This document shows positions 9,627 through 62,893 of a stretch of DNA of 64,000 nucleotides, in pieces. The notes below the pieces were generated by a model. The model had not been told where the DNA came from, ran no database searches, and saw only the letters and a program-made list of their open reading frames with translations. Source of the stretch: a bacterium. GTDB taxonomy: Bacteria > SAR324 > NAC60-12. The position numbers and the translations under genes were made by a program. The stretch's first letter is position 1. Each line of letters starts with the position of its first letter. The stretch covers positions 640,001 to 704,000 of the forward strand of contig CBDBHR010000029.1 in the NCBI GenBank assembly GCA_965205865.1, read 5' to 3'.

Positions 9627-9695
9627 TCCAAATTCCAAGCCCCAAGTCCTACGTTCCAAGTTTCAGGAACAGAAGGGCAAAAAAGGGGTCAGGCT

Positions 9696-10387
9696 GTGCG
9701 CCAGGAAAGCTGGCAAGAAATAGAGAGTGAAAGTCTCTTACTCGGTAAGGCAGTAACGACCCGCTGAGTCCCCGAGTCATGAGTGGTTATTCGCAAGGAT
9801 AGGCGCTAAGCGTTGACAGGGGAGAACATAGGCTCGGTATTGAGCTCCGAAATCATAGTTTCAGGCGCTGACCTTGTGGTCTGGTGGAAAAGGCAATATC
9901 AACCGAAGGCCTTAGCGTGAGTCTCGGCTGAGCCTGGCGGAGTCAAAGACCCGGTGCATGTGTGGAAGTTTCTTGATCGGAACCTGGGAGATCCTGAAGA
10001 CGACTGTCAACATTCTATTGGTAGTCGGATCGGGAAAATTAATAAATAACCCCGATATCTACGTCTTCAGGAAGTCGGACAAGTTCGTAGTAGCGATGAA
10101 GCGGCGAACAATGAGATAATTTGCAGAGAGTAACAATGCAAAGGAAATCAACGGAGCCTGTGGAGCAAAGGGACTTGGCTGAGAGGAATTCTGCTTGCCC
10201 TCCTGTGTTCGGAACTCAGAGGCCGGTAAAATCAGAGAGCGGTTTAAGCAGGGTGCGCCAAACGGCAACGTTTGAGCGTCTGACTCGAAGCAGGAGCCGG
10301 ATGCGTTAGCAGCGCACGTCCGGATCTGTACTGGAGGAATGACGAAAGGTGGCTGGAAACCACTATAAGTCAGTTCTTTACGGTGAC
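9696..10387 (+). ncRNA. ORF-less group II intron (692 nt)
   Basis: 5' GTGCG; domain V GAGCCGGATGCGTTAGCAGCGCACGTCCGGATC (10294-10326); domain VI ending ..GGTGAC; typical domain I-III motifs (GTATTGAGCTCCGAAA, GGAACCTGGGAGATCC, GGAAGTCGGAC, GGAGCAAAGGG); no RT ORF. Confidence 0.9.
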
Positions 10388-10459
10388 TTTGATTAAATTG
10401 TATTTTGTTAAATTCTATGGTTAGCATTGCTCCAGACTTGAGAGCAACCGAGAGGAAAA

Positions 10460-11304
10460 ATGGCAAGAAAACGAAGAGTTCATTAACCGGGAGCGGTCTA
10501 TCATGTGATGCTTCGTGGCAATGGGGGGCAGGGCTTTTTTTTGATGATGATCGTTTTTATTTTGGAGAGTTACTTTTGGAGGGAGTGGCGCGTTTTGAAC
10601 ATCGTATCCACGGGTTTTGTTTTATGGGCAATCATGTTCACTTGGTGGTTCAAGTGGGTGTGATTCCGCTGTCTCGCATTGTTCAAAATGTGTCATTTCG
10701 TTATACTCGCTGGATCAACAAAAAACAAAAACGGATGGGAAATTTGTTTCAGAGGCGCTATAAAGCGATTTTAGTGGATGCCGATCAGTATTTATTAGAG
10801 TTAATTCGCTATGTTCACCTGAATCCGATTCGGAACGGGCTCGTCAACGATCCGAAACAATATTTTTGGTCAAGCCATGCCGTGTATACGGGAAAGAGAA
10901 AGATGCCTTGGGTTCATACAGAGTGGGTTCACGCTCAATTTTCCAGGCACTCAGGTCATGCTCGACGGATGTATCGTCGCTATGTTGAGGAAGCTATGGA
11001 GGACACCCTACCCCCCGAGTTCGAAAAAGGGAATAAAGAAGGAAGGATTTTGGGAGATGATCACTTTGCGGAAAGTGCATTACAACAAGCGGGAGAGCCC
11101 ATTCACCAAACATTGGAGTTGGAAGTCTGGGGAGAGCGTTGTGGTCGAGATGGTGTCACCTTAAGCAATGCCATTCAAATTTTGCTAAAACGCACCAAAA
11201 CAGACAAAGATTTGGTAAACAGAATGAAAGAAATTGAGGAAAAACTATTAATCTCTTTCGGGTCTAACTCGCCGCAGCCGCTCAGCGTACCGTTGCTGCG
11301 TTGA
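10460..11304 (+). pseudogene. REP-associated tyrosine transposase (RAYT, Y1 HUH)
   Basis: MARKRRVH*PGAVYHVMLRGN, then a frameshift; FCFMGNHVHL (HUH), LFQRRYKAILV, YVHLNP, WSS. Confidence 0.88.
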
Positions 11305-11435
11305 AAAAAAGATAATCCGACAAAATACTCCGCTCGAGCGAAGCGAAAGTCGAGCCTCAACGAGAGAGCATGCTTCAGGATAGTTTATTTGAATAATGAA
11401 ACGTCAAATGAAATAATAAAAGGCCTGACCCCATT

Positions 11436-11810
11436 TTGCGCCATATCCTGATTCTCCATGTCCTGCCCAATATTATGGCGCCGATCATCATCATCTTCTC
11501 GATCAACATTGGCGGCGTCATCATTGCCGAGGCGTCGCTGAGCTTCCTCGGATTCGGGTTACCCCTCAAGATTCCCAGTTGGGGAGGAATGCTCAGCCGG
11601 GAAGGGCGTCAGTTCATGGAGATTGCCCCCCGGCTGGCGCTCTGGCCGGGGCTTTGTCTGACTCTTGTCGTCTACTCCCTCAACATGTTCGGCGACGCGG
11701 TGAGAGACCTGCTCGATCCCCGGTTGAGGGGCAGTGGGGGCCGTTATAGCACCACGATGAAACGCAAACGAGGCCTCCTGGCCCGACTGATCAACCCTTT
11801 CAATGGGTAA
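11436..11810 (+). pseudogene. DppC/OppC-type ABC permease, C-terminal fragment
   Basis: HVLPN..EASLSFLGFG..GDAVRDLLDPR; begins 3 nt after the TGACCCC end. Confidence 0.88.
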
Positions 11811-11917: not shown

Positions 11918-12135
11918 ATGCCTACTTACATAACCCCGCTTGATACAAAAGAGGATGCCCTTGAAGTCGTCGGCGGTAAAGGCCGATCGCTTGCCAAATT
12001 GGCAAACACCGGTTTTCAAGTCCCTGGCGGTTTTCAGATAACCACGGCGGCTTATCGGCGTTTTGTCGCTGATAACGGCCTGCAGGAACAAATCATTGAT
12101 TTAGCCAAGCCCGCTGTCGTCGAGGGGAGAGCTTT
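11918..12135 (+). pseudogene. PEP/pyruvate-binding enzyme, N-terminal fragment
   Basis: VGGKGRSLAKL..VPGGFQITTAAY; paralogous to 56516..58726; truncated after ~72 codons. Confidence 0.82.
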
Positions 12136-12257
12136 GATAAAATATTTTAAATTTTATGCGAAAGGCTCCTCAGTGAACTGCGGGAACGTGGTAAGTGAAC
12201 TCACCATGAGACAGACCCCGGTGCTGTGAGCGCAAACCTTAATCTTGAGTAAGACAA

Positions 12258-13179: not shown

Positions 13180-13562
13180 CAAATGTGTATTTTCTGGCAG
13201 CCAGGGCCGTGGGCGTCCCCATGTACCAAATCCTCTTCCGGCATGTGCTGCCCAACATCATGGCGCCCATGATCGTCATCTTCACCGTGACCATTGGCGA
13301 CGTGATCATTGCCGAGGCCTCCCTGAGCTTCCTCGGTCTTGGGCTTCCCCCCGATGTCACCAGCTGGGGGGGGATGCTCAGTTGGGAAGGACGCCGATAC
13401 ATGGAGAGGGTCCCGGCGCTGGCTCTCTGGCCCGGGCTTTCCCTGTGCATCGTTGTCTGGGGCACCAACTTGTTCGGCGACGCGTTGAGAGACCTGCTCG
13501 ACCCCAGCCTGAGGGGTGGTGTCGGGCGCTTTGGAGCCGCGAAGATGAAGAAGGCTCTATGA
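13180..13562 (+). pseudogene. DppC/OppC-type ABC permease, C-terminal fragment
   Basis: YFLAARAVG (EAA loop)..HVLPN..GDALRDLLDP; N-terminal half missing. Confidence 0.85.
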
Positions 13563-14563: not shown

Positions 14564-14587
14564 AAATCCGGGGACAGTTACTAATTT

Positions 14588-15523
14588 TTAAATGCTGGGA
14601 TCGGAATCTTTATCTTGGAGGAGAACACGGAGCCGTTCGACTTCCGCAAGAGCTTTTTCTTCTCTTTGCAAGGCGTCTTCTTTTTGTTGCCGCTCTTTTT
14701 CTTTTTGTTGTCGCTCTTTTTCTTCTCTTTGCAAGGCGTCTTCTTTTTGTTGTCGCTCTTTTTCTTCTCTTTGCAAGGCGTCTTCTTTTTGTTGTCGCTC
14801 TTTTTCTTTTTGTTGTCGCTCTTGTTGGAAGCTTTTCAGGAGGAACGGCTGGTAGAGGGGATCATCGATTAATTTTTCAAAGGCCACCTGTTTTTCTAAA
14901 TCCTGAAGACGAAATGCGAATCGATCCAAAACCCTGGAATGAATCACGCCGGGCTCTTTGCTCTTCATCCTTTCATAAACCCCCTGCTCATTGAGAGCAT
15001 AGAAGGCGGTATGCTTGCGCAAACGGTCTAATATATAATATTCCGCTACCCCCGCTTTGGCGTATTCTTCTTTTTTGTGAATCGTATCCCGTTCCACCTC
15101 CGAGGGAGTCGAGTCGGATAAAAACTCTATACAGAGGTCACACACCCCATGAAACGAACGATCCAACTGTTTGGCCTCGACAGGATTGGAGTGAAGAATC
15201 ACGGCCAGATCCGGTTTGCGAATACTCACCTTTTTCTTTCCCAGTTCCAAACGAAAGCCCATTTCCAATGCCATGATTCGCCCTTGAGGGAAGACGGTTA
15301 AATATTCTTCTAATAAGCGCAAGAACCATTGATACAGGGAGATGCTTAAAAAATCTGGCATGGGCTTTTCCTCCAAGAGTCCATTGTTCCATTCATATTG
15401 ACTATCCGGGTGTTCATAGTACGTCTTCCAATACTCTGCCTCACTCACCCTGAGGGGCTCCCTGGCAGATGGAGGAAACCGTGTAGGAGTGGTGTTGTTT
15501 TTGATGGATTCTAAAGAAGCCAT
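14588..15523 (-). CDS. Uma2-family endonuclease with repetitive coiled-coil tail
   Basis: RKPDL, DLCIEFLS, KKEEYAKAGVAEYYILD; GAGGAC RBS before ATG 15523; 21/42-bp repeats at ~14650-14825. Confidence 0.88.
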   Translation of the reverse strand: MASLESIKNNTTPTRFPPSAREPLRVSEAEYWKTYYEHPDSQYEWNNGLLEEKPMPDFLSISLYQWFLRLLEEYLTVFPQGRIMALEMGFRLELGKKKVSIRKPDLAVILHSNPVEAKQLDRSFHGVCDLCIEFLSDSTPSEVERDTIHKKEEYAKAGVAEYYILDRLRKHTAFYALNEQGVYERMKSKEPGVIHSRVLDRFAFRLQDLEKQVAFEKLIDDPLYQPFLLKSFQQERQQKEKERQQKEDALQREEKERQQKEDALQREEKERQQKEKERQQKEDALQREEKALAEVERLRVLLQDKDSDPSI

Positions 15524-15719
15524 GAGGTCCTCAATGGGAATGAGAAGTGAAATTTGTGGTCTTTTTAACAGGATAACATAGTGTGAGGAGGACTGCAATT
15601 TTCCATTTTTGTAATTCGGAGGCGCATTCATCGGTGAGTTGCTATATTCAAACAAAAAAAGCTTGACCCCTTCTGAAGCCTCAAAGAGGGTTAAAGAATT
15701 TCTGCTGGTCTTTTGTTTT

Positions 15720-15990
15720 CTTTTTTGATAATTTTCAACGAAAATGCCTTTAGTTGAAGGTTTTATTTCAATTTCGCTACTTATTTAGCCGAAAGTCATG
15801 TAAAATATTATATTCTCCCCAGAGGATTTTTAGAAACTGTCAACTGGGAATGGAAAAGTGCAAAAAATGTTGACTTCTGTATCTTAACATGAAAAAGTCT
15901 TTTCGTTGATCATCAGAAGACACTCCTGAATGAGTCGCCCTACTTAAAAAAAGTTTGACAAACGTTTGCGGAGCGATTATAGTTTCTACC
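15720..15990 (+). repeat. Promoter-platform segment with promoter TTGACA-17-TATAGT (15955-15983)
   Basis: Inverted homologue of ~50765-51040. Confidence 0.75.
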
Positions 15991-16012: not shown

Positions 16013-17764
16013 CCCTGCAATTAGCAGTGTACCATCAAACATGGAAATGTAATAGTACTTGAATAGTTAACCCAGTTTCAACATTTTAACCTAGATCACC
16101 AATTGACCATGAAAAACAAAGAGTAGCGCAAGATCGGCAAGAACGTTTTTTTAAAAAAATCCATTTGAGCCAGTTGATTTCCATCAGTCCTTGCGCAAGC
16201 AGGCTTGATTCCGCCCTCCATTAGTCGTCAAATTTTTTCACAAAGAAGGGATTGTTTCGCGGGACAGAGCAGACCGTAGATCATCGGCGTGGCGCCATTT
16301 GGGTCTTTATGACGCGGTGTATCCATGGTCATTTTGAAACGGTGGTCGGCATTGTTCTGGCGACCCATGCGATTCGTTCGATTGTGACAGTTTGGAACGA
16401 CCGTGTTCTTGAGTCGTGTGGCCGGTTTTTGAGGATTCCGGATGAAACCACATTCGGCCGGATTTTACTGCGTACTTTCACACAGAAAAAGTCGCATGAG
16501 ATGGCCGAGCTTGAACCATCGGATTCGAGCCGGTATCTGGCGTAAGGCACTTCGAAGTGGGACAAGCATCGTTGGGGTGTTACACTGTCTTGTGATTGAC
16601 GTGGACTCGCACTGTGAAAACGGCCTGTTGGCAAGCCAAGGAGTGTCTGTCGGATATAATCCACACAAACGCAGGTGCAGCTTCGTCAATCATCCTCTGC
16701 TGACCGCATTTTGGCCATACTCAAAGGAGATTCTTCAGGGTTGGCTTCGTGATGTGAGTGCCTATACCAAAAATGGAGTCGTTGACTCCTTCATCTCAAA
16801 GAGGGTGCGGCAACTTCTCGAGTCACCTTCCAAATCGGACTCGCACTCTGTTTCGTGGAGACAGTGGTTTTTTTGTGGGGGACCATTGCTGGATTTCCTC
16901 GAAGAACGAGGCCATGGCTATCTGATCAAGGTCAAACTCAAGGGGCTTGTCTCGTTGTTGGAAACCCAAAAATGGCAAAAAGTGAAAGCCCGCTTGGGAA
17001 GGGTTTGAGTGATTAGCCACCAATCGTGAAACTTCGAGGAGGTCAAGAAAATTCATGGCCGTACGCAGGGAGAAAGAGGAGGAACTGTCTCAAAGGGATG
17101 GCCACCCTCTTTGAAGATGAAGAAGTACGATGAATTTTTGCTGGTTATGCACTCATCACTGAAGCTCACTCCCTGGCAGGCTCACAAAGAGTATGGCCAA
17201 AGGGCGGTCGCTGAGACATGGATGAGGAAGCAAAAAATCAAACTGCGCTGGTGGGGATTAAATCCGACATTTTTGGGCCAACAGTGCCTTGTTGCTTGCG
17301 CGATAGGCTCGTTTTCAACACGCTGGAGTCCACGTCCCTTTGTAGTGTAAACGCAATACTGCGCTTGGGAACCGGCCACCATGCGCACCTATCTTGTCCG
17401 AATGGCAGGAAAATGGACGATGGCGCTCGTCAACAAAAACTGAGAGTTCCGGAAAGAACACTTTACAATGCTCAATGGGATGCATGGAATCGCTGTTGGA
17501 GAGACCTGGAACCTTTGTTTCACTCAATACATTTTGCTGAGATGTAGTTCCAAATCCAGGGACAAGTACGTCTTGAATCTTGTGCGCCACCAAGCGGGTA
17601 TCAGACCATCGACAAAATATGACGCGTCTAATGGAGGGCGGAAAAACCTTTATGATCAAGGACTGATGGAAATTCAACTCTCAAATCCTTTTTTTAAAAA
17701 AACCCGGAATCAAAGAGGGGTCAGGTCTCTGCCTCAATGGCAAAATATTCAATTGCAGGATTTA
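16013..17764 (+). mobile_element. IS1380 copy 3, riddled with indels (probable consensus artefact)
   Basis: Colinear with 1387-3082, with many 1-3 nt indels and a duplicated flank. Confidence 0.75.
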
Positions 17765-17885
17765 TCTTGGTACTATAGTTTCTTCCAAGGATAAAAGGGC
17801 AATATGCGACCCTTCACTTTGCAGTCGTACCATCAAGAGGACATGAGTTTGAAATTAACCCGTTTCAAATATAAAATAAAAAAAA

Positions 17886-17914
17886 TTGACAAGAGGTTAA
17901 AATGAGAGTACGAT
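17886..17914 (+). promoter_or_regulatory. Sigma70-type promoter TTGACA-17-TACGAT
   Basis: Homologous to 4372-4400 and 9406-9434. Confidence 0.72.
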
Positions 17915-18002
17915 CCCGGCACCCGCGCACCTAGCCCCTAGTTCCAAGTTTCCATTCTCAAGTTCTCAGTTCCAAGCACCAAGCACCAAGTTCCCCATCC
18001 CA

Positions 18003-18076
18003 AGTTCTACCCCCTTATCTCATCTTGACGGCGACGCCCAGTCCGAGGGGAAGAGATCCTTCAGATTCCTCGTTCC
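18003..18076 (+). other. Conserved leader motif, copy C
   Basis: TTCTACCCCCTT..TCTTGACGGCGACGCCCAGTCCGAGGGGAAGAGATCCTT. Confidence 0.55.
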
Positions 18077-50240: not shown

Positions 50241-50307
50241 CTGGGAGCTGGGAGCTGGGAGCTGGGAGCTGGGAGCTGGGAGCTGGGAGCTGGGAGCTGG
50301 GAGCTGG
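50241..50307. repeat. Perfect heptamer tandem repeat (CTGGGAG)x9
   Basis: Direct count; lies just downstream of the minus-strand -10 box at 50314-50319. Confidence 0.95.
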
Positions 50308-50313
50308 CTTTTA

Positions 50314-51675
50314 AGTTTACTTTCATATCCACCTCATTTTCAAGATGCTTTTATACTTGAAACGGTTTAATTTCAGACTTTCATGTCATCCTGAGGAATT
50401 ATTATGATTAAATCAACACAAAAATGCATTTGGCTCTCTTTTTTGTTAACAGCACTGACAAAGTGTAGCAAAAACGTTAGTATCAACGGACAATATTGCT
50501 CTTCTGTCCCTGGAATAATATTTATAATCGCTCTGCAAATGTTTGTCAAGTATTTAAGGCTATCTGTTCTCAGCTAACCATTTTCACTGACAAAAAAACG
50601 GTATATCAATATGATTCAAAAACTGATAGCTGACAGCAGACGGCTAAAAGCCATTTCGAGACAGCAACTATTTAATGATAATATTTTATAACTAGCAATA
50701 AATCAACTCTTTTTCTTAAGACATATCCGATTAGTCATTTAAAGCAATTTTATCTCATATTGATCTAGAAATAGTATAATCGATCTGCAAATGTATCAAG
50801 ATTTTTTAAATATGGCGACTCATTCATTCATGAGTGTCTTCTGATGATCAACGAAAATATTTTTTCATATTGAGATCCAGAAGTCAACATTTTTGGCACT
50901 TTTCCATTCCCCGTTGACCGTTTCTAAAAATCCTCTGGTGAGGATATGGGTTTTTACATGACTTTCGGCTAAATAATATGAGCGAAATTGAAATAAAACC
51001 TTCATCCAAAGATGATTTCTTGAAATCTATCAAAAAAGAAATAGAAAGACAAGCCGAAATTCTTAAAAACCTTAAGCCCAAGGCGTTTTCGTGAGAACTA
51101 TCAAAATTGCCCTTCCGTCGGCCCAAAGCGTATTCGTTGAAACTTATCAAAAGAGAAAACGAAAAACAAGCAGCCTTTCTTAAAATCCTTCAGCCAAAGG
51201 CGATTTCTTGAAAACTATCACAAAAGAAAAAGAAAGACCAGCAGCCATAAAGACGATTTCTTGAAAACTATCACAAAAGAACGATGATGGCAAAATCCTG
51301 GTAGATTTCATGATCCCCTTCAGTATCCTCTCTATATAACAATATTCAGAGGAGGTCAATCGATTTTTTTTTGCTCACCTTGATTCCTCAGTAGCGAGTG
51401 CTTGTCTCATCCTGGAGTTGATCCTCGCTGCTCTCTGTCTCAGTCCTTGAAAATAGCGAAGGCATCCTTGCAGCACAATATAAAAATATTTAGAGGATGT
51501 CAATAGATTTTTTTTGCTCATCTTAACTCCTCAGTGGCGAGTGCTTGTCTCATCCTGGACTTGATCCTCGCTCTTCTCTGTGTCAGTCCTTGAAAATACT
51601 GGGCAATCCTGCCCTTCCCGGAACGAAAAGCATGGGATTCAGGGCGAATCATTTCAAGGACAGATGCCCACTCGG
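50314..51675 (-). promoter_or_regulatory. Stacked sigma70-type promoters (platform copy D)
   Basis: TTGAAA-18-TAAACT (50343-50314), TTGACA-17-TATAAA (50549-50521), TTGATA-17-TACTAT (~50799-50771), plus two units with -35 boxes near 51359 and 51503. Confidence 0.65.
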
Positions 51676-52355: not shown

Positions 52356-53498
52356 ATGATTCCACGTATTCAAGAGACAGCAGAGCTCCAATCCCGTCTC
52401 AAGTATTTCAAAGTTACAGCATTGCTGGGCCCCCGGCAATCTGGGAAAACGACTCTGGCCCGGCAATTTCAGGCGGATCATTATTTTGATTTGGAGAACC
52501 CGCAGACCTTGGCGCAATTTCAGAACCCGCAACTGACCTTGGAGCGATGCCAGGGATTGATTGTCATTGATGAAGTGCAACGCAAGCCGGATCTATTTGC
52601 TTTGATTCGTTATCTGGTGGACACAAACTTCAAGCAGCATTATTTGATCTTAGGCAGCGCCAGTCGTGATTTAATTCGCCAGAGTTCAGAAAGTCTGGCA
52701 GGGCGGATATCGTATTATACCCTTTTGGGGTTTCGTAAAGAAGATGTGCAGACTGATGAGTTGGAACAATTATGGTTACGAGGCGGGTTGCCTCCTTCCT
52801 TTTTAGCAGAAGATGAGGCAGTCAGTATGCAATGGAGAGAGGATTACATCCAGACTTTTCTGGAAAGAGATATTCCTGGATTGGGCATCCGGATTGCCGC
52901 GGAAACCTTGCGGCGTTTTTGGCAAATGGTGAGTCATTATCATGGGAACATCCTCAATTTTTCAGAATTGGGACAATCCTTCGGGATTGCGGACACCACG
53001 GTCCGGCATTATACGGATATATTGAAGGGCACTTTCATGATTCGGGTTTTGCCACCTTGGCATGCCAATATTGGGAAGCGTTTGGTCAAAAGACCAAAGT
53101 TGTATTTTAGGGATTCCGGCCTTTTTCATGCGCTGCTCTCCGTTGGCAGCTCCCTTGCCCTCCATACCCATCCTAAGTTGGGCAGTTCCTGGGAAGGGTT
53201 TGCTCTAGATTGTGTGTGGCGGAGTGTGGGTAAATCGGACGAACAGGCATTTTTTTGGGCGACCCATTCGGGGGCGGAAGTGGATTTATTTTGGCAGCAT
53301 GAAGGGAAAGGATGGGCGTGTGAATTCAAATACACCGACGCGCCGACTTTGACAAAGTCCATGATTTCTGCCCTCTCCAGCCTTCAGTTGGAAAAACTCT
53401 GGGTGGTCTATCCCGGAAAAACCCGCTATCCCCTCCACGAGAAGGTGGAGGTGCTCCCCTTGCAGGACATTCCTGCCCGTTGGGTATATAAGACATAG
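52356..53498 (+). CDS. AAA+ ATPase (AAA_14 + DUF4143 type)
   Basis: GPRQSGKT, IDEVQ, LGSAS, RGGLP, PKLYFRDSG, EVD..CEFK. Confidence 0.9.
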   Translation: MIPRIQETAELQSRLKYFKVTALLGPRQSGKTTLARQFQADHYFDLENPQTLAQFQNPQLTLERCQGLIVIDEVQRKPDLFALIRYLVDTNFKQHYLILGSASRDLIRQSSESLAGRISYYTLLGFRKEDVQTDELEQLWLRGGLPPSFLAEDEAVSMQWREDYIQTFLERDIPGLGIRIAAETLRRFWQMVSHYHGNILNFSELGQSFGIADTTVRHYTDILKGTFMIRVLPPWHANIGKRLVKRPKLYFRDSGLFHALLSVGSSLALHTHPKLGSSWEGFALDCVWRSVGKSDEQAFFWATHSGAEVDLFWQHEGKGWACEFKYTDAPTLTKSMISALSSLQLEKLWVVYPGKTRYPLHEKVEVLPLQDIPARWVYKT

Positions 53499-53526
53499 AG
53501 TCATTCATCATGAATATCGAGGAAAG

Positions 53527-53589
53527 GGGGACATGTACACCGCTGCGCATCCCAACTCTACTGTTTTATGCCTGCTGTTACGTGTCCCC
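53527..53589. repeat. 63-bp mini-element with GGGGACA..TGTCCCC inverted ends
   Basis: GGGGACATGTA / TACGTGTCCCC (10 of 11 match as an inverted repeat). Confidence 0.55.
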
Positions 53590-53796
53590 TAATTTTGCGT
53601 ATCCATACTTCTAACTTATTTAAATTTCATTCCTTAGTTATTTAACTGAGATTTCAGTTCAGTGAGAATATTTTGCAATTCACCACCGTCTTTCTGGTTT
53701 AGTTCTTCTAAAGGGCTAACAGGCTGCTTCAGCAAGTCTTGTACCATTTGAATTTGGCTGACCAATCTTTCCTTTCTTCCTCTTTTCTGTCCCCTT

Positions 53797-55402
53797 CATG
53801 AAAGAGGGTTCTCTTTTTATCCTCTTCTGAAGAAAATGAGGTCAGCTTCCACATTGGTTTCCATTCAAAAAATGAGAAATCACATGAAGAACTGGTAAAA
53901 ACGAGTGGAGGTGATTATACTCAAATGCCAATGTCCAACCAATCGGAGCGAAAACTATGACAGAGAAACGAATCATCCGTTTTGACTGGGCTATCAAAAC
54001 GGTCCTACGCGATAAAGCCAATTTTGATATTCTGGAAGGGTTTCTGACGGCTCTCCTCCAGGAAGAGATCCGCGTGGTTTCCCTTTTAGAGAGTGAGAGC
54101 AATAGCGCGGAGGAACAACAAAAGTTCAATCGGGTGGACCTTCTGGTGAAGGATTCTCAAGACCGTCATTTAATTATTGAAATCCAAAATCAGCAGGAAG
54201 CGGATTATTTGGAAAGACTGCTCTTCGGAACCTCGAAGGTGATTGTCGAAAACCTGCCACTCGGAGAGACCTACGATCAGATCAAAAAAGTCATTTCCAT
54301 CAGTATTCTTTACTTCAACCTGGGTTTGGGAAAGGATTATGTTTATTATGGAAAGACGGAATTTCGTGGCATCCATAGCAATGATCTCTTAAAAATCCGT
54401 GAGAAAGTCAAAGGTCCTGATCATCTCACTCACCTTCAAGCAAAAAAGAACCTCTTTCCTGAATACTACTTGATCCGTGTGGAGAGCTTCCAGGATATGA
54501 TCGAAGCGGACTTAGATGAATGGATCTATATGTTAAAACACGAATCCATCAAGTCGGAATTTAAATCGAAGCACATTCGTGAAACCGGGAAAAAATTAGA
54601 CCTTTTGAAAATGGGTTCTGAAGAACGCAAACGTTATGAAAGGTATCTTATGCATTTGGTTTCGGAACGAGGAATCATCGAAACAGCAAAAGCAGAGGGG
54701 AGAGAAGAAGGAATCGAAAAAGGAATCGAAAAAGGAATCGAAAAAGGAATCGAAAAAGGAATCACTGACATGGCAAGAGAAATGAAACAAAAAGGGATTG
54801 ATCTAAAAATGATCAGTGAAATTTCCGGATTGTCTCCGGAGGAGATTGAAAAATTATAAGATCCTCTTACTTCTTTCCTAAAACGAGCAAACCATCAGCT
54901 TTAGCCCACCAATCCGGTGAATGCGCTGTGGATGGTTCCCGGGACCCACCAGCAGGACAAGCTCGATATCGTCGCACGGATCCAGGCATGGGGGTCGGAT
55001 CGTCTCCCGGGGGCCGTCCCGATACTGTGTCAACCGGGCAATGTGGTGATCATGAACCGCCAGGTGTTGCATGGACCCTTTGCCAACACCTCGACGGTCA
55101 TGCGGGCGACTTAGCAGTTTGGCTTTCACAGTAGAGAATTCCGCAACCAGGCGTCCCCGCGCCTCACAGAAATGTGGGGTATAAAGCCGGATGGACCAAG
55201 AGTGTAGGCCTCGTCATTGAGCCCCGAAAGCGAAGGATCATGTTGGAGGAAAGCCGACAGCCTTCAAGTGTCGGAAGGCAGCAGTCCGAGTGCGCATCAA
55301 AGGGCTGGCACAAGGACACCACCGAAAGGTCGACCCCGCATCGAAGAGCGGGGCATGCGCTCATATGAGTAAAGTAAGCAAAAGTCGGGACTTGACCCCT
55401 TT
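53797..55402 (+). repeat. Rpn module, copy 2
   Basis: Bounded by TGTCCCCTT (53788) on the left and TGACCCCTT (55393) on the right. Confidence 0.92.
53957..54859 (+). CDS. Rpn family PD-(D/E)XK nuclease, copy 2
   Basis: Near-identical to copy 1; GIEK x4. Confidence 0.9.
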   Translation: MTEKRIIRFDWAIKTVLRDKANFDILEGFLTALLQEEIRVVSLLESESNSAEEQQKFNRVDLLVKDSQDRHLIIEIQNQQEADYLERLLFGTSKVIVENLPLGETYDQIKKVISISILYFNLGLGKDYVYYGKTEFRGIHSNDLLKIREKVKGPDHLTHLQAKKNLFPEYYLIRVESFQDMIEADLDEWIYMLKHESIKSEFKSKHIRETGKKLDLLKMGSEERKRYERYLMHLVSERGIIETAKAEGREEGIEKGIEKGIEKGIEKGITDMAREMKQKGIDLKMISEISGLSPEEIEKL

Positions 55403-55499
55403 ATTGGGGATGGCACTCTGTGTGGTGACGCCTGGATGAGAAGGGGGCAAAAAAACTGGACTCATTCCTAATCAAATAATCAAAGGCCTGACCCCATCT

Positions 55500-55587
55500 C
55501 TCATGACTCGGGGACTCGGCGGGTCGTTACTGCCTTACCGAGTAAGAGACTTTCACTCTCTATTTCTTGCCAGCTTTCCTGGCGCAC
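55500..55587 (-). ncRNA. 5' 88-nt fragment of the 9696 group II intron at a second site
   Basis: Reverse complement matches 9696-9783 with one mismatch; upstream exon is GGGGACAGGTT. Confidence 0.88.
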
Positions 55588-55627
55588 AACCTGTCCCCAT
55601 CTCTCGCCGTCATTGGTATCCCTGAGC

Positions 55628-56437
55628 TTACGCAGTTTCCAGCAAATGCTGGAGAGCGGCTTCTAAGTGAGGCGTATGCTTCGTCAGCACTGGTACGAGG
55701 GTGTCGTCGGTGACCTCGAAGCACAACGGGGTGACGGATATGAGCCCCCTATTGAGAGCCCAGACATCCGTCCCCTCTTCGATGTCGGGATGGTCCTCCG
55801 CGATGGCGGAAAGCTTCTGATAATAGAGTCCATCGTTGCCCTGTTCCGTTCTCAATCTCCAGTATGCAAGAGAAGAGAGTTTGGTGACGACAATACCCCG
55901 GATTTCTCCGCGAGAGACACTGGGGACATTCACATTGAGGGTAATGCCCGCCGGCATTTCACCCTCTGCTATGCGGCGCGCCAACAATTCGGAAACCCTA
56001 CCGGCAAGGTGGAAAAGCGGCTCTCTTTGGTCTTGCGGCCCCTGTTGGCTCAGAGAGATGGCCATTGATGGGATCCTGCGGGTATGAGCCACTCGAGTCG
56101 CCATGGTAGTCCCCGATCCAAGGATACCATGACTGACGTTGGCACCCGTGTTGATGCCGGAGACGACGAGTTCAATATTCCCTTCAGCCAAGGGCCCTAA
56201 CCCCAGGAACACACAATCGCTTGGTGTGCCGCTGACGGCATAGGCACGTGCTCCCTTGATGGAAGCAGTTCGTTCAGCAACAACAATGCCGTTATGAAAG
56301 GATACGGCGGTTCCCACGCCACTCTGCTCTTGGTCCGGGGCAACAATGAGCACTTCCCCGATCCGACTCATCGCTTCGGCGAGAACCCGGATGCCGGGCG
56401 ATTCGATGCCGTCGTCGTTTGTGACCAGAATCTTCAT
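55628..56437 (-). CDS. surE: 5'/3'-nucleotidase SurE
   Basis: ILVTNDDG, GTPSDCV, SGINTGAN, SGT, LNVNVP. Confidence 0.9.
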   Translation of the reverse strand: MKILVTNDDGIESPGIRVLAEAMSRIGEVLIVAPDQEQSGVGTAVSFHNGIVVAERTASIKGARAYAVSGTPSDCVFLGLGPLAEGNIELVVSGINTGANVSHGILGSGTTMATRVAHTRRIPSMAISLSQQGPQDQREPLFHLAGRVSELLARRIAEGEMPAGITLNVNVPSVSRGEIRGIVVTKLSSLAYWRLRTEQGNDGLYYQKLSAIAEDHPDIEEGTDVWALNRGLISVTPLCFEVTDDTLVPVLTKHTPHLEAALQHLLETA

Positions 56438-56515: not shown

Positions 56516-58726
56516 TCACTCGTCGAGGAGTGCGACCACACCGGTGTCGCCATCCACACGGATCACCTGCCCGTGCTTGATCCTCTTGGTGGCAATCCCG
56601 AGACCGAGCACTGCCGGAATGCCATATTCCCGCGCAACGATCGACCCGTGGGCGAGGATACTGCCCAGATCGGTGACCAGGCCGGCGGCATGGGCAAAGA
56701 GCTGCGTCCAGGCCGGCGTGGTCAACGGAGCAACCAGGATCGATCCCGGCTCTCACTTGTCAAAATCCGCCGGGCCCAGAACCACGCTGGCCTTGGCGGT
56801 CACCTGACCGGAGCTTACCGCAAAACCACGTATGGTAGCACTGGAATCATCATTGAGGATCTGTGCGGTCGTCGCTGCCGCTTGGGCAACAATCCTGTTT
56901 TCCCCCGCCTCTTCAGGAACGACTACCGGCGGGAGATGCTTTCTTCGTGCCTCTCGGAGCTCTCGTCGCTCCGCCGCCAACTCACCCAATCGGGGCAAGG
57001 CTTTGCCCGACTGGCGCGCCTCAATCGCCTGGTTCAACTCGTCGGTGAGCAGGTAGAAGGTGTCTTCGGCATCCAAGAAGGTGCCCACTTCCACCAGGCG
57101 ATGGCCCAGTTCGAAAACCATGGGGCGCAATACCGACCAGCACGAGCCCACCAGGAAGGAGACTTCGTCTTCCCGTAGGCGGGATTCTCGCTTTCCGGCA
57201 TCGTCACCTGAAACGCCAGCTCATCAAGAGGCTGCGAGGCCTCGAATGTGCGAAACGCTTGTCGATCCACCTCCGACAAGTCCGCAACCATTAACGCCAG
57301 GTCATGTTGTTCCTGATCAGGAGCATCCGTGTCGAACGGATGTTTAGGAAGCTCGTCGGCATAGGGCTCTCGCTGCTCGTGCACATGCGGATTGTCCATC
57401 CGGAGGTACGCGTAACCGTTCAGACTCACCATCAGTGCCCCACCGTCGACGAAGGGGCTTTTTTTGCCGCCCGAATGGGGTTTGATCGCCAATCCAGGCC
57501 ATCGGTCAGGTACAACTCGTCAAACAACGGGCAGAGGGGGTCGGGCATGTTTTCGACAATATTGCGGCGCACCAGATGGCGGACCGGTGGTCTCGGGGTC
57601 CAGTCGACCTCGATCGGCTGTACCGGGAGATGGGTGATCGGCCGGGATTGCAGCAAGTGCAGCTTGCCACCGGAGAACGCCCATTCGATATCCTGCGGCA
57701 GGTCATTGTACAGCTGCTCCACTTTAAGGGCCGTTTCCACCAACTCGCTCAGCATGGCATCGGCCAGGGAGGACTGTGCTCGCTCACCCTCGGACACCTC
57801 CTCCAGGCATATCCCCTGCTCGCCGTCGGCCACAATCTTCTGCTCTTTGGGGCCAATCAGGGTTTCCTTTGCGGTCCTGGAGCCCTTATCGATGATGTAG
57901 GTATCGGGAGTGACCTTTCCGCTCACCACCGCTTCGCCAAGACCGAAGCTGGCGTTGATAATCATCTCACCGCGCTCCCCGGTAGCTGGGTTCGCTGTAA
58001 ACAGGATGCCCGACACTTCCGCTGGCACCATCCTCTGGACCACCACGGCCATGGCCACGGAGTCCTGAGCGATCCCGTTCCGGTGCCGGTAACTGATGGC
58101 CTGCGCCGTCCACAGCGAGGCCCAACAATGCTTCACTGCCGCCACAACGGCTTGCGCGCCGGTGACGTTGAGAAAGGTTTCCTGCTGGCCGGCGAAGGAC
58201 AGCCCCGGCAGGTCTTCCGCATTTGCTGAAGAGCGTACCGCGAGCGCGGGTTCGCCTGCCAGCGCACGATAGGCTTCGCTAATTTCAGCACTAATCTCGG
58301 CTGAGAGTTCGGTGTCGGCAAACAGTTGCCGGATGGCGGCGGATGATTGCTCGAAGGAGGCTCTTCCCTCCACGACAGCGGGCTTGGCTAATTCAATGAT
58401 TTGTTCCTGCAGGCCGTTATACTGTGAACGGATGTTTTCTTCATTTTTTATCATCCTGAGGGAACTGAAGGATCTTCTTGACTCCCATGAGATTCTTGCT
58501 TAGGCAGCCACTTTAGCTCAGAATGAAAGGTCTTTTGAAAAGTGAAATTTAAACCCGTTCATAGTATATCAGTGACAAAACGCCGATAAGCCGCTGTGGT
58601 TATCTGAAAACCGCCAGGTACCTGGAAACCGGCGTTTGCCAACTTCGCAAGCGAGCGGCCTTTACCCCCGACGACTTCAAGCGCGTCGTCTTTTGTATCA
58701 AGTGAGGTGATGATGGTTATTTTCAT
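56516..58726 (-). pseudogene. PEP-utilising enzyme (PEP synthase / rifampicin phosphotransferase-like), fragmented
   Basis: GGKG, AVRSSANAED..SFAGQ, GLGEAVVSG, DIEWA, LQSRPIT, HGSIVAREYGIPAV; MITE insertion, frameshifts, internal deletion, internal stop. Confidence 0.88.
58420..58566. mobile_element. 147-bp IS630-type MITE
   Basis: TIR TACTGTGAACGG / CCGTTCATAGTA; TA duplication; removal restores ..FVTDNGLQ.. Confidence 0.85.
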
Positions 58727-58811: not shown

Positions 58812-59004
58812 AGTCCCGGAGGGACGAAAGGTCATAGCTCAGCCATTGATGGCTGGGGACCGATTTTTATGATGGATCCAGTCCCGGAGGGACGACACTT
58901 AAAGCGCACTGAAGAAAAAGTGTCGTCCCTCTGGGACTAAAAACGTTTTGTGGCCTATCCCAGCCATAAATGGCTGGGATAGGCCCTGTCACCCCTCCGG
59001 GGTT
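58812..59004. repeat. REP-like palindrome cluster
   Basis: GTCCCGGAGGGAC x2, GTCCCTCTGGGAC, CAGCCA-N4-TGGCTG x2. Confidence 0.75.
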
Positions 59005-59112: not shown

Positions 59113-60069
59113 TTAAATGAAAGGGTTGATCAGCCGGGCGAGGAGGCCTCGTTTGCGTTTCCTGGCGCCGTAACTTCCCTGCCCGCCCTTCAGCCGGGGG
59201 TCGAGCAGATCCCTGAGGGCATCGCCGAACATGTTGAGGCTGTAGACGGTAATCGTCAGGCAAAGCCCCGGCCAGAGCGCCAGCTGGGGGGCTAATTCCA
59301 TGTACTGACGCCCTTCCCGGCTGAGCATCCCGCCCCAGCTGGGAACCTTGAGAGGTAGACCAAATCCGAGGAAGCTCAGCGACGCCTCACTGATAATCAC
59401 CGCCCCGATGTTGATGCTGAAGATGATGAGGACGGGCGCCATAATATTGGGCAGGACATGGCGGATCAGGATTTGGCTCGTGGGGGTACCCACGGCCTTG
59501 GCTGCCAGAAAATAGTCATTCTCTTTGACCCCAATCACGGCGCCCCGGACGACTCGGGAGCCACCGATGCCGCCGGATATCCCCAGGACCACGATGATCT
59601 GGAATAAACCCTGCCCGACGATGGTCATGATGGTTAACAAGAGCAGCAGTCCCGGGAAGGCCATCCAGGCATCGACAAAGCGTTGCGCAGCCAGGTCGAC
59701 TTTCCCCCCAAAGAATCCGGAAGTGCCGCCGATGAGGAGCGCGACCACCACATTCAGCAGGGTCGCGGACAGACCGACCATTAACGAAATGCGAGCCCCG
59801 ACGATCAGGCGGCTCAAGAAGTCCCGCCCCATGTGGTCGGTCCCCAGGAGATACCGGGCTGAGGGGGCATGCAGGATGTCTACTAAGTGCATTTCATAAT
59901 AGGGATAAGGCGCCAGAACATCGGCAAAGAGACTGACAAAAATCAAGAGCAATACGATAACCCCGCAGAACGACCCCAGCGGTTTCTCCTTGAGAAGCCT
60001 GATCAGGAAATACGCCAGCCGGCCCCGTCGCTTGGGCTTCCTTACTACTGATTGTGTTTCTTGGGTGTC
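59113..60069 (-). pseudogene. DppC/OppC-type permease, near full length but with its start codon lost
   Basis: Frame open to DTQETQ.. (cf. MNNTQET of 63947) and preceded by TAG; could still start from an internal TTG. Confidence 0.75.
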
Positions 60070-60481
60070 CTAGATTGACTTGCAACTGGGTGGCATTCCG
60101 CTCCATTATGAAAATTACAAAGGCACTACTGAGGGGTCGCAAAAGGAGTCTCTATCGATTCCTTCCATTGTCCGACAAACCCAAGCAGAGAATATGGAGG
60201 CTTTCATTGACAAAATCCAAAATGATGAGGCCTTTGTGAAACAATGGATCAAAGTGTCAAAGGACAATATCAACCACTCTCGAAAAGCAACTAAAGAACT
60301 CCTGGATTTGGACGAGATTAATGATATTGCGCTGCCAAAAACGGCCTGATATAAAAGTGTGCCATCGGCAAAAATTATCAAAAAAAAATTTTCGAAAACT
60401 CAAGAATATATTGCTTGACAAGACAATGCAATTGCATTACCTTATAAAGGGAGGGATGAATATATATATTTTTATCGGGAG

Positions 60482-60817
60482 GTGATTATGGCTCAGTTAT
60501 CTTTATACAGTGACTCTATGCTGACAAATCGGTACCAAACCACAATACCGGATATGGTAAGAAAAGCACTTCATTTAAAAAAACGCGATAAGATCCTTTA
60601 TACTCTTCAAGCTGATGGAACGGTAATGATATCTCGTGCGGATCAGGATGAAAACGATCCTGTTTTGTCTCAGTTCTTATCCTTTCTAGCAAAGGATATC
60701 AGCCAAAACCCTAAAAACGTAAGTTCCCTAGGCTCTGATTTGGTTGAGCGCATCCGGCCCCTCGTCTCTAGCGTTGAAATAGACCTAAATACCCCTCTTT
60801 CTGATGAGGATGATTAA
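60482..60817 (+). CDS. prlF: PrlF/SohA-family antitoxin
   Basis: LTNRYQTTIP..VRKAL..DPVLSQFLSFLAKDI. Confidence 0.88.
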   Translation: MIMAQLSLYSDSMLTNRYQTTIPDMVRKALHLKKRDKILYTLQADGTVMISRADQDENDPVLSQFLSFLAKDISQNPKNVSSLGSDLVERIRPLVSSVEIDLNTPLSDEDD

Positions 60818-60819
60818 GT

Positions 60820-61313
60820 GTGACAAAAGTAAAATCTTTAGTCATCAAGGGGTGGAATATATTTGGCCATGCTTTATTCTTAGACCAAGTGGAATCGCTC
60901 ATCGAGCAAGTGGAATTGCTACGCCAGAAAGATCCTGTCCATTACAAAAAAAAGAATGTGACAAAACGTCTTGCAACCATTTTGAGGCTAGCTTTTGAAA
61001 TCATCCCTCAAGATCCCACTCTTCCGGAGTATCGTCAAGGAATGACGCTCGGAGATCCTCACAAACATTGGTTTCGGGTAAAATTCTTTCAGCAATATCG
61101 GCTTTTTTTCGATATCACTTAGAAAGCAAGGTCATTGTTTATGTTTGGGTGAATGATGAAAGGACGAAACGAGCATTCAACCGGAAAACAGATGCTTATC
61201 GAATATTTAAGAAAATGCTGGAAAAGGGACATCCCCCTAATAATTGGGAACAGCTGATCAAAGAAGCTAAAACCGAAACAACCCGTCTCAAAAAAGCGAT
61301 TGGTGAAAAATGA
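60820..61313 (+). pseudogene. yhaV: YhaV-family toxin, frameshift in a T7 run at ~61103-61109
   Basis: IPQDP..YRQGMTLG..HWFRVKFFQQYRLFF / RY..IVYVWVNDE..DAY. Confidence 0.85.
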
Positions 61314-62893
61314 GGTCAGCTTCCTCATTGGTTTCCTTTCAAAAAATGAGAAATCACATGAAGAACTGGTAAAAACGAGAGGAGGTGATTATACTCAAAT
61401 GTCAACGTCCAACCAATCGGAGCGAAAACTATGACAGAGAAACGAATCATCCGTTTTGACTGGGCTATCAAAACGGTCCTACGCGATAAAGCCAATTTTG
61501 ATATTTTGGAAGGGTTTCTGACGGCTCTCCTCCAGGAAGAGATCCGCGTGGTTTCCCTTTTAGAGAGTGAGAGCAATAGCGCGGAGGAACAACAAAAGTT
61601 CAATCGGGTGGACCTACTGGTGAAGGATTCTCAAGACCGTCATTTAATTATTGAAATTCAAAATCAGCAGGAAGCGGATTATTTGGAAAGACTGCTCTTC
61701 GGAACCTCGAAGGTGATTGTCGAAAACCTGCCACTCGGAGAGACCTACGATCAGATCAAAAAAGTCATTTCCATCAGTATTCTTTACTTCAACCTGGGTT
61801 TGGGAATGGATTATGTTTATTATGGAAAGACGGAATTTCGTGGCATCCATAGCAATGATCTCTTAAAAATCCGTGAGAAAGTCAAAGGTCCTGATCATCT
61901 CACTCATCTTCAAGCAAAAAAGAACCTCTTTCCTGAATACTACTTGATCCGTGTGGAGAGCTTCCAGGATATGATCGAAGCGGACTTGGATGAATGGATC
62001 TATATGTTAAAACACGAATCCATCAAGTCGGAATTTAAATCGAAGCACATTCATGAAGCCGGGAAAAAATTAGACCTTTTGAAATTGGGTTCTGAAGAAC
62101 GCAAACGTTATGAAAGGTATCTTATGCATTTGGTTTCGGAACGAGGAATCATCGAGACAGCAAAAGCAGAGGGAAGAGAAGAAGGAATCGAAAAAGGAAT
62201 CGAAAAAGGAATCGAAAAAGGAATCGAAAAAGGAATCGAAAAAGGAATCGCTGACATGGCAAGAGAAATGAAACAAAAAGGGATTGATCTAAAAATGATC
62301 AGTGAAATTTCCGGATTGTCTCCGGAGGAAATTGAAAAATTATAAACTCCTCTTATTCTTTCCAAAAACGAGCTAACCATCAGCTTTACCCCACCAATCC
62401 GGTGAATGCGCTGTGGGTGGTTCCCGGGACCCACCAGCAGGACAAGCTCGATATCGTCGCACGGACCCAGGCCAATGGGGGGTCGGATCGTCTCCCGTGG
62501 GCCGTCCCGATGCCGTGTCAACCGGGCGATGTGGTGATCATGAACTGCCAGGTGTTGCATGGATCCTTTGCCAACACCTCGCCGGTCATGCAGGCGACTT
62601 AGCAGTTTGGCTTTCACAGTAGAGAAGTCCGCAACCAGGCGTCCCCGCACCTCACAGTAATGTGGGGTATAAAGCCGGATGGACCAAGAGTGTAGGCCTC
62701 GTCATTGAGCCCCAAAAGCGAAGGATCATGTTGGAGGAAAGCCGACAGCATTCAAGTGTCGGAAGGCAGCAGTCCAAGTGCGCATCAAAGGGCTGACACA
62801 AGGACAGCACCGAAAGGTCGACCCCGCAGGATCGAAGAGCGGGGCATGCGCTCATATGAGTAAAGTAAGCAAAAGTCGGGACTTGACCCCTTT
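61307..62893 (+). repeat. Rpn module, copy 3
   Basis: Near-identical to copies 1 and 2; identity with copy 1 extends into the downstream permease tail. Confidence 0.92.
61431..62345 (+). CDS. Rpn family PD-(D/E)XK nuclease, copy 3
   Basis: Near-identical to copy 1; GIEK x5. Confidence 0.9.
   Translation: MTEKRIIRFDWAIKTVLRDKANFDILEGFLTALLQEEIRVVSLLESESNSAEEQQKFNRVDLLVKDSQDRHLIIEIQNQQEADYLERLLFGTSKVIVENLPLGETYDQIKKVISISILYFNLGLGMDYVYYGKTEFRGIHSNDLLKIREKVKGPDHLTHLQAKKNLFPEYYLIRVESFQDMIEADLDEWIYMLKHESIKSEFKSKHIHEAGKKLDLLKLGSEERKRYERYLMHLVSERGIIETAKAEGREEGIEKGIEKGIEKGIEKGIEKGIADMAREMKQKGIDLKMISEISGLSPEEIEKL

Follow-up and report, generated by a model that had tools for sequence, protein, structure and literature searches.

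A recurrent heptanucleotide in a SAR324 genome is probably the core of TIRtron terminal inverted repeats, one of which is split by a group II intron

Results

A TIRtron with a disrupted transposase gene

The stretch of DNA analyzed here (the window) is a 64-kb part of a genome from the SAR324 lineage (contig CBDBHR010000029.1, positions 640,001 to 704,000), in which the short motif TG[AT]CCCC, or its complement GGGG[AT]CA, recurs. A preliminary description of this DNA, of which every motif coordinate was verified in the window sequence, had proposed that the motif marks the junctions of gene modules shuffled by a Y1 HUH enzyme. Two of the sites form the ends of an element at 9685-11432, which is a TIRtron, that is, a gene for a Y1 HUH transposase of the TIRYT type lying between terminal inverted repeats (TIRs). 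The element measures 1,748 bp with, and 1,056 bp without, a group II intron of 692 nt. It had been presented before as an element resembling those of RAYTs (transposases associated with repetitive extragenic palindromic, or REP, sequences); the inverted ends at 9685 and 11426 hold, while the complete intron at 9696-10387, which lacks an open reading frame (ORF), had been overlooked. The locus contains the following features.

9677-9695, forward strand: left TIR, outer GCAAAAAA followed by the core GGGGTCAGGCT, parted from its inner portion by the intron
9696-10387, forward strand: ORF-less group II intron, 692 nt, with 5' GTGCG, domains V/VI at 10292-10387 and terminal AC (10386-10387)
10388-10398, forward strand: inner portion of the left repeat, TTTGATTAAAT, after the intron; it aligns to the inner portions of the right end and of a solo repeat arm
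10460-11304, forward strand: TIRYT (RAYT-like Y1 HUH transposase) pseudogene, from Pfam Y1_Tnp, translations, tblastn and alignment to the intact relative P0003
11411-11439, reverse strand: right TIR, a 22-nt arm ending in GGCCTGACCCC plus outer ATTTTGC, adjoining the OppC fragment
11440-11804: 3' fragment of an OppC permease gene, adjoining the right TIR

The left core (9685-9695) and the right core (11422-11432, GGCCTGACCCC) agree at 10 of 11 positions and read GGGGTCAGGCT and GGGGTCAGGCC, respectively, in the inward direction. An outer GCAAAA[A/T] is found at both ends alike, and the repeat arm of about 22-29 nt reads GCAAAA[A/T]-GGGGTCAGGC[C/T]-TTT[G/T]ATTA. The right arm differs from the solo arm at 55474-55495 by one mismatch in 22. 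The permease fragment noticed earlier beside the right end is indeed there; it is of the OppC type and starts at 11436-11440.

The names TIRYT and TIRtron were coined by Di Nocera, De Gregorio and Rocco in 2013 for RAYT-like genes between TIRs (PMC3733652). The TIRs of TIRYT genes have the consensus GGGGWSAS in common (PMC3733652, PMC6006769), and this consensus is satisfied at the left and right ends of the window element as GGGGTCAG. Members of the TIR families are found as singletons, dimers or groups, and different families share GGGGWSAS (PMC3733652). Since the motif is the published end signature of TIRYT genes, it is not to be counted as a new recombination system.

The ORF at 10405-11304 matches Pfam Y1_Tnp (PF01797) with E = 1.1e-10, and the NCBIfam model REP_Tyr_transpos scores 59.7 bits on the local gene, under its cut-off of 80. 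Its translation contains the HUH motif as HVH within GNHVHLVVQ and the catalytic tyrosine within RYVHLNP; H60, H62 and Y119 are invariant in 44 relatives. The gene had already been called a pseudogene, and three lesions uphold this: the reading frame from the ATG at 10460 meets a TAA at codon 9 (10484-10486), translations and tblastn place a frameshift between 10525 and 10540, and alignment to P0003 reveals a deletion of 46 amino acids in the DnaA-like helix-turn-helix (HTH). With both frames combined, the gene corresponds to a disrupted version of a protein of about 330 amino acids.

The close relative P0003 is intact, with 328 amino acids. Its AlphaFold model (pLDDT 89.5) has as top structural match the E. 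coli REP-associated tyrosine transposase 4er8, with a template modeling (TM) score on the target of 0.74, and the TnpA proteins of IS608 and ISDra2 rank after it. The C-terminus matches the DNA-binding domain of DnaA, 3pvp, in structure (TM 0.90) as well as in sequence. We found 1,899 homologues of the TIRYT, and most of those listed have about 312 amino acids with Y1_Tnp followed by Bac_DnaA_C (PF08299), the C-terminal domain whose HTH is shortened in the local copy. According to Quentin et al. 2018, most TIRYTs belong to TnpA-REP subclass 2.1, with C-termini similar to Bac_DnaA_C (PMC6006769). The subclass is marked by a C-terminal HTH of the Bac_DnaA_C, HTH_23 or HTH_28 type.

The core flanks related genes in other lineages

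A single scan of genome contigs with the Y1 fragment gave nine loci with 48-52% identity, mostly from Zetaproteobacteria; one of them (L009) is a 587-nt fragment and stands outside the eight whole-gene loci. In seven of these eight Zetaproteobacteria-type loci the gene lies between inverted repeats of 21-47 nt starting with (C/G)GGGTCAGGC or GGGTCAGCT, in elements of about 1.0 kb. Plasmid records gave 11 matches with 30-38% protein identity, and such repeats were present in four of the five loci examined, as follows.

Sporomusa plasmid locus: repeat core GGGGTCAGGCC, identical to the right-end core in the window
Rhodospirillum rubrum plasmid locus: repeat core GGGGTCAGACC
Legionella adelaidensis plasmid locus: repeat core AGGGTCAGGCC
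Pseudoalteromonas plasmid locus: repeat core GGGGTCAGAG, in clusters

Taken together, 11 of the 13 loci from other lineages, whose TIRYT relatives have 30-52% protein identity, have a GGGTCAG-type core flanking the gene, and the inverted repeat reaches 3-7 nt beyond GGGG in every lineage examined. Solo and tandem repeat copies stand near the genes in L001, L005 and L016. The core is conserved from Bacillota to Proteobacteria and this SAR324-like genome, whereas the inner arm varies by lineage, which makes the core the candidate cleavage site of the HUH domain and the inner arm the candidate binding site of the HTH.

As a side observation, two contigs of relatives (L007, 1008 nt; L008, 1530 nt) terminate nearly exactly at the inverted repeats of the element, and the gene of P0002 sits on a contig of 951 nt. 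Contigs that terminate at inverted repeats are an assembler product for multi-copy repeats, a hint that TIRtrons are multi-copy in those genomes.

A group II intron sits in the repeat, directly after its core

The intron begins directly after the left core GGGGTCAGGCT. Rfam model RF02005 (domain I core) matches at 9730-9952 with 151.8 bits against a gathering score of 49; RF00029 (domains V/VI) matches at 10292-10387 over its full length with E = 0.0035 and 29 bits, under its gathering score of 40. Related plasmid introns align to the window intron from intron base 1 and carry ltrA from about intron nt 355. No intron-encoded reverse transcriptase or maturase was found in 9696-10387, where the ORF 10059-10466 (reverse strand) matched 0 families, and a family scan of 56 ORFs did not find a reverse transcriptase in the window. 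Because the intron is ORF-less, its reverse transcriptase must come in trans.

A second intron copy lies far from the first one, next to the solo repeat arm.

55474-55495, reverse strand: solo repeat arm (GGGGTCAGGCCTTTGATTATTT), similar to the repeat beyond the core (p = 0.001)
55500-55598, reverse strand: truncated intron copy (first 88 nt, 55500-55587) with its own 5' exon GGGGACAGGTT (55588-55598)

This copy with its exon is 97% identical to 9685-9783, and two of the three mismatches over 99 nt fall in the 11-nt exon, with only one in the 88 intron nucleotides. Such a concentration in the exon means two independent insertions at the same position of different core copies and not to one duplicated insertion. 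In both copies the insertion point follows GGGG[T/A]CAGG[C/T]T.

This specificity fits the first exon-binding site (EBS1) of the intron, which was located by covariation after aligning the window intron with two plasmid introns, L010 and L011. The loop in question is unpaired in the Rfam consensus, and in the window intron it is complementary to the last six bases of the insertion site.

Window intron: loop GGUCUG (intron nt 183-188), 5' exon ends CAGGCU / CAGGUU
L011 intron: loop TAAGCG, 5' exon end CGCTTA
L010 intron: loop CATTG, 5' exon end CAATG

The pairing in the window includes G-U pairs, and an uninterrupted CAGGCC would pair better. For EBS2 the candidate is GACCC (nt 63-67) against GGGTC, backed by L011 only. 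Other candidates from the minimum-free-energy fold, ACCCC (nt 354) and AGCCUG (nt 236 and nt 460), were dropped as they lie partly within stems.

From these sequence matches, the intron appears to home into the TIRYT core through pairing of EBS1 with its intron-binding site, IBS1. Our data suggest an intron that is specialized on TIRYT repeats, with EBS1 reading the core CAGG[C/U][C/U], and that depends on a reverse transcriptase encoded elsewhere. The repeats of relatives contained no intron in 8 loci, and the insertion sites of the two plasmid introns inspected, L010 and L011, are both unrelated to the motif. In the literature searched we found no paper joining a group II intron with a REP-associated tyrosine transposase, nor one joining SAR324 with a group II intron.

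The motif excess is confined to noncoding DNA

Counted on both strands, TG[AT]CCCC occurs 25 times in the window, compared with 16.2 +/- 3.8 in 100 dinucleotide-preserving shuffles, of which 2 reached at least 25. ORFs with a Pfam or NCBIfam match cover 69% of the window bases; within them, Markov models predict 9-11.6 copies and 11 are found, which bears out the caveat, already raised in the preliminary description, that the 7-mer also arises by chance inside genes. Outside these ORFs there are 14 copies against 4.6-5.3 expected. The excess is therefore real and confined to noncoding DNA.

Sorting the 25 sites gives 11 that are intragenic, 4 that are the TIRtron or intron debris, 3 that represent a single duplicated site at the ends of the Rpn modules described below, and 7 other noncoding sites that have only 7-11 nt in common with the TIRtron repeat. 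Once the 4 TIRtron- or intron-derived copies and 2 Rpn-end duplicates are removed, 8 noncoding copies remain against about 5 expected, which is not significant (our own Poisson estimate, P ~0.13).

This raises the question of whether, beyond the TIRtron and its debris, the motif simply reflects chance and base composition, with G-runs in purine-rich leaders and heptamer-repeat DNA producing sites of no common origin. Besides the intragenic count and the independent remainder, both at or near expectation, the a-priori core GGGTCAGGC with at most one mismatch is found 11 times against 10.95 expected; GGGGWSAS is found 22 times against 13.65 (22 was reached in 1 of 100 shuffles), an excess largely explained by derived copies; and the sites at 4253 and 53788 lie within G/A-rich or heptamer-repeat sequence. 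The 11-mer GGGGWCARGYY, in contrast, has 9 matches against 0.4 expected, a post hoc figure as the 11-mer was derived from these very sites, and neither the geometry of the sites around a Uma2 gene nor a 63-bp inverted repeat with the outer flank of the TIRtron (both described below) fits easily with chance. We regard chance as a possible, if somewhat doubtful, explanation of the sites outside the TIRtron. Two further ideas were discarded: AAAGAGGG as a common flank (10 against 3.65 expected, with half of them inside IS copies or genes), and a role of the sites as terminators, as a scan of 53300-55800 detected 2 terminator-like sites where 3.0 were expected.

The motif is not a general mark of junctions

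Of all motif sites, 9 of 25 lie within 10 nt of the end of a high-scoring segment pair in a BLAST comparison of the window with itself, compared with 1.29 for random positions, and 9 was reached in 0 of 2000 trials. These nine sites correspond to about five events: the left end of the TIRtron together with its copy, its right end adjoining the OppC 3' fragment, the solo arm beside the truncated intron, and the two ends of Rpn copy 2; the list also includes an intragenic site at 59526. Of the 126 breakpoint clusters in the window, only nine carry the motif and 117 are without it, among them the ends of the OppC fragment 13182-13545 and of the pyruvate phosphate dikinase fragment 11929-12132. 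The motif is not a general junction mark. Half of the junctions first cited in its favor are the TIRtron's own ends or debris, and AGACCCC at 12213, taken for a junction variant, is separated by 81 nt from the homology end closest to it, at 12132. That some breakpoints carry the motif is explained by its place at the end of a mobile unit and by the intron that it attracts.

The Rpn modules illustrate this point. Two sites are relevant here.

44765-44775, reverse strand: GGGGTCAAGTC at the end of Rpn copy 1; the same site is at 55389-55399 in copy 2 and at 62880-62890 in copy 3
53788-53796, forward strand: TGTCCCCTT directly before Rpn copy 2, a direct repeat at 8 of 9 positions with TGACCCCTT (55393-55401)

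All three copies of the duplicated module have this end site in common, and its inner similarity to the TIRtron repeat is marginal (p = 0.02-0.05). It had been stated that all three modules end at the motif, and this is true of copy 2 only, since copies 1 and 3 remain 96-100% identical for about 250 nt beyond it, to about 45020, and so have no break there. For copy 2, as described before, homology starts at 53797 directly after TGTCCCCTT and stops at 55406 after TGACCCCTTTA; the upstream TGTCCCCTT is present only in this copy and is absent from copies 1 and 3. We consider the direct TGWCCCCTT flanks of copy 2 suggestive but unproven as evidence of movement. The three co-oriented motif copies at 55393, 55489 and 55592 were also confirmed; the cluster at 55393-55598 is made up of the Rpn end, the solo arm and the core that carries the intron fragment. 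In a scan for the 22-mer arm with up to 8 mismatches there were 47 matches against 21-26 in 3 shuffles, and the idea of further decayed arms was rejected, as beyond the query itself (0 mismatches) and the right end (1) the best match has 6.

Some features of the modules deserve mention in their own right. The Rpn (PDDEXK_2) modules at 43173-45798, 53797-55406 and 61307-63913 are 96-98% identical to one another and differ in the copy number of a 12-nt tandem repeat, GGAATCGAAAAA, which encodes GIEK units. In the OppC gene that follows each of these two copies (1 and 3), identity falls at about 45020 from 96-100% to about 78%, and this change points to a recent conversion or duplication over older paralogues.

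These results bear on the model originally put forward, in which TG[AT]CCCC sites are acted on in trans by a Y1 enzyme that strings Uma2, Rpn and OppC pieces into integron-like arrays. Enrichment at breakpoints within the window, the IS200/IS605-like layout of the direct repeat around Rpn copy 2, the Uma2 gene bracketed by an inward-facing pair, the OppC fragments that begin directly after the motif at 11440 and 44780, and the existence of P0003 as a close intact Y1 relative would all be in keeping with it. However, most breakpoints lack the motif, three of the roughly five events behind the enrichment are TIRtron ends or intron debris, Rpn copies 1 and 3 are unbroken at the motif and lack a left one, and the intron homing into the repeat accounts for some of the junction signal. 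In addition, the Uma2, Rpn and mini-element sites have little sequence in common with the repeat, the noncoding excess dwindles after removals, orientations are mixed across the window with no co-oriented cassette array outside 55393-55598, and no Phage_integrase-type recombinase is found among the 56 ORFs scanned, which the first description had conceded. What survives is the link to a Y1 HUH enzyme, which the TIRYT repeat signature makes stronger than it was when first proposed; the building of integron-like arrays we judge highly improbable.

Units bounded by the motif

Three further features contain tip-like copies of the motif.

14570-15670: Uma2 gene (14588-15655, reverse strand) between inward-facing GGGGACA (14570) and AGCTTGACCCC (15660-15670)
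53527-53589: 63-bp unit with 13-nt inverted ends GGGGACA[T/C]GTA, its right end followed by TAATTTTGC, as at the TIRtron ends
17717-17727, forward strand: GGGGTCAGGTC in the sequence of IS copy 3, missing at the equivalent place of IS copies 1 and 2

The inverted pair around Uma2 stands as first described, 11 nt and 8 nt outside the ORF. The chance of such a bracket is 0.001-0.003, a post hoc estimate that assumes uniform placement of 10-14 noncoding sites. No inverted repeat was found between the two flanks past the 7-mer, and no relative of the gene on plasmids at E <= 1e-10. The tight inverted bracket is suggestive but unproven. Apart from this, the 3' part of the Uma2 gene (14632-14826) contains 7 copies of a 21-nt tandem repeat that encode a repetitive, charged C-terminal tail. 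The 63-bp mini-element, too, was confirmed: it is an inverted-repeat unit that folds as a hairpin (z = -3.4), and the outer GCAAAAT at its right end is also present outside both TIRtron ends. No second copy of either unit was found in the window, and reading the flanks of the three inward-facing units revealed no common target or duplication. As for the copy at 17717, it lies inside a stretch homologous among the IS copies, away from any junction.

It is tempting to speculate that the Uma2 unit and the 63-bp unit are nonautonomous TIR elements mobilized in trans, belonging to other TIR families that have only the GGGGWSAS core in common, and that the cores are also hot spots of aberrant joining, with no building of arrays. 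Such families have been published (PMC3733652), and the window has three inward-facing pairs, of 1.75 kb, 1.1 kb and 63 bp. The Uma2 unit, at 1,101 bp, is near the length of the intron-less TIRtron, and its bracket is improbable by chance; the smaller unit has its own 13-nt inverted repeat as well as the TIRtron outer flank. Aberrant cleavage and joining at cores would then give the junctions of Rpn copy 2 and of the OppC fragments. Since the statistics are post hoc, neither unit has a second copy in the window, the inverted repeat of the Uma2 flanks ends with the 7-mer and plasmid relatives of Uma2 were not found, we consider this explanation unlikely overall. The Uma2 bracket, the 63-bp unit and Rpn copy 2 fit TIR-bounded nonautonomous units or aberrant core joining, and are too few to decide.

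Genomic context

The window is a mosaic of several insertion sequence (IS) families, three Rpn modules and decayed paralogues of an opp operon, a setting in which coincidences between short motifs and junctions are easily found. Its UvrB is 80% identical to proteins of SAR324 cluster bacteria and 98-100% identical to further database records. An IS of the DDE_Tnp_1_4 type (1-3084, 16014-17778) is present in two copies that are 99.6% identical and in one 87% copy; an SBP_bac_5 solute-binding gene is interrupted by the copy at about 1394-3080, which leaves the parts 774-1400 and 3078-4064. In the region 6049-7669, where one IS has probably inserted into another, a zinc-binding transposase fragment of the IS91 type (6049-6555) and an IS256-type (Transposase_mut) gene (6425-7669) overlap.

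OppC permease fragments and full paralogues lie at 11440-11804, 13182-13545, 44780-44845, 62895-62960 and 59113-59952, and in copies 1 and 3 a 66-nt internal OppC piece lies just 3' of the stop codon of the full gene. Repeats of the region upstream of the opp operon recur at 4189-4408, 9602-9680, 17878-18076 and 50060-50221. Heptanucleotide tandem repeats such as (CTGGGAG)n are present at 4277-4370, 9602-9680 and 50241-50314, and we presume a likeness to the short tandem heptamer repeats of filamentous cyanobacteria. Another repeat family, whose units of about 120-145 nt share 83-95% identity, lie in either orientation and are tandem in part (4483-4996, 9028-9193, 15691-15981, 50775-51675), had no Rfam match at the gathering level.

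An Acido-Lenti-1 RNA is matched by Rfam at 58812-58857 (reverse strand; 41.3 bits against a gathering score of 37), adjoining a fragment of a pyruvate phosphate dikinase gene (57432-58454); a second copy of the N-terminal piece lies at 11918-12229. At 60482-61122 there is a PrlF antitoxin / YhaV toxin pair; the YhaV ORF spans just profile positions 1-85 of 138 and is, for this reason, probably truncated just upstream of Rpn copy 3.

Discussion

Our analysis indicates that the motif is probably the conserved core of TIRtron inverted repeats, and that what the window contains is a dead, intron-invaded copy of such an element plus its debris. The remaining tip-like sites (the Uma2 flanks, the Rpn ends, the 63-bp unit, 17717 and 4253) are repeats from other TIR families, copies that have decayed, or products of chance. 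On the model of E. coli TnpA-REP and IS608 TnpA, the repeats would be bound by an intact TIRYT from another locus, with its HUH domain at the conserved GGGGWSAS core and its HTH at the lineage-specific inner arm. It would nick and rejoin single strands at the repeats, so that TIRtrons move, and this movement would leave solo, paired or clustered repeat copies in noncoding DNA.

Several points weigh against this interpretation. No TIRYT is known from biochemical work to cut or move DNA, the discussion in PMC3733652 proposes the assays, and the mechanism therefore stands as an analogy. Moreover, single repeat arms gave no significant hairpin compared with shuffles (z = +0.63, -1.34), unlike the ends of REP sequences or IS200/IS605 elements, and the single-strand model may for this reason not transfer. 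Beyond the TIRtron ends, only one solo arm in the 64 kb (55474-55495) is demonstrably repeat-derived, and because GGGTCAGGC is not enriched, the claim of dispersed copies has a very slim basis in this genome. A TIRtron does not explain why Uma2 is so tightly bracketed, nor why Rpn copy 2 has direct TGWCCCCTT flanks. Finally, the genome locus L003 is without such repeats, and so is the Skermanella plasmid locus (L013), with none among the five repeats listed.

We could also speculate that an intact TIRYT of the P0003 type, acting in trans, cuts and joins at dispersed GGGG[A/T]CA sites and moves the DNA that lies between two cores or 3' of one. In that case the Uma2 unit would be an element that is bounded by TIRs and carries a passenger, Rpn copy 2 would have been inserted 3' of TGTCCCCTT by peel-and-paste transposition, and aberrant strand transfer would have produced the OppC fragments. 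We regard this idea as very unlikely, although, if true, it would explain for the first time by what mechanism the paralogues of Uma2 and of the Rpn nucleases have expanded; more generally, passenger genes moved between cores would bear on how the Uma2 and Rpn families multiply. The intron is of interest for a different reason, as its presence on a conserved, multi-copy and selectively neutral core would represent one mobile element specializing on another.

Among known systems, the window element most directly recalls the published TIRtrons and their TIRYTs, which correspond to TnpA-REP subclass 2.1 (PMC3733652, PMC6006769). As in these, a RAYT-like Y1 HUH gene lies between TIRs and not between REP hairpins, the repeat contains GGGGWSAS (GGGGTCAG at both ends here), intact relatives of the local gene have a C-terminal Bac_DnaA_C HTH, and additional repeat copies, in the window one clear solo arm and one core with an intron fragment, appear to be single or clustered. 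It differs in that the local copy is dead, with its stop codon, frameshift and HTH deletion, and in that a group II intron interrupts its left repeat. REPtrons, in which a RAYT is associated with REP sequences or REPINs, share with it the best structural match of the HUH domain of P0003 (4er8) and the layout of a single gene between inverted copies of a short repeat that occurs elsewhere too. In contrast, the arms in the window are not self-complementary hairpins, no GTAG tag was seen on reading them, and the TIRYT protein is about twice as long and has an additional HTH.

IS200/IS605 elements, such as IS608 and ISDra2, have subterminal hairpins and no terminal inverted repeats, and they insert 3' of a fixed target of 4-5 nt. 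The Y1 HUH fold is common to them and the window element, and the left-flank and right-end motifs of Rpn copy 2 resemble their target and right-end cleavage sites; however, the window element has terminal inverted repeats, and the Rpn module is without a Y1 enzyme and shows this arrangement in only one of three copies. With integrons the likeness is merely the idea of short sites bounding gene-sized units, since the window has no co-oriented cassette array, its sites do not resemble the imperfect palindromes of attC and the enzyme class is another one; no IntI-type recombinase was seen either, as judged by the lack of a Phage_integrase match among the 56 ORFs of at least 100 amino acids scanned out of 93 listed. 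The intron itself resembles the bacterial group II introns that reside in mobile DNA and repeats, with its 5' GUGCG, its domains V/VI, its residence in a mobile element and a target read through EBS-IBS pairing. Unlike them, it is ORF-less at 692 nt, and the target that it occupies is the conserved core of a TIRYT repeat.

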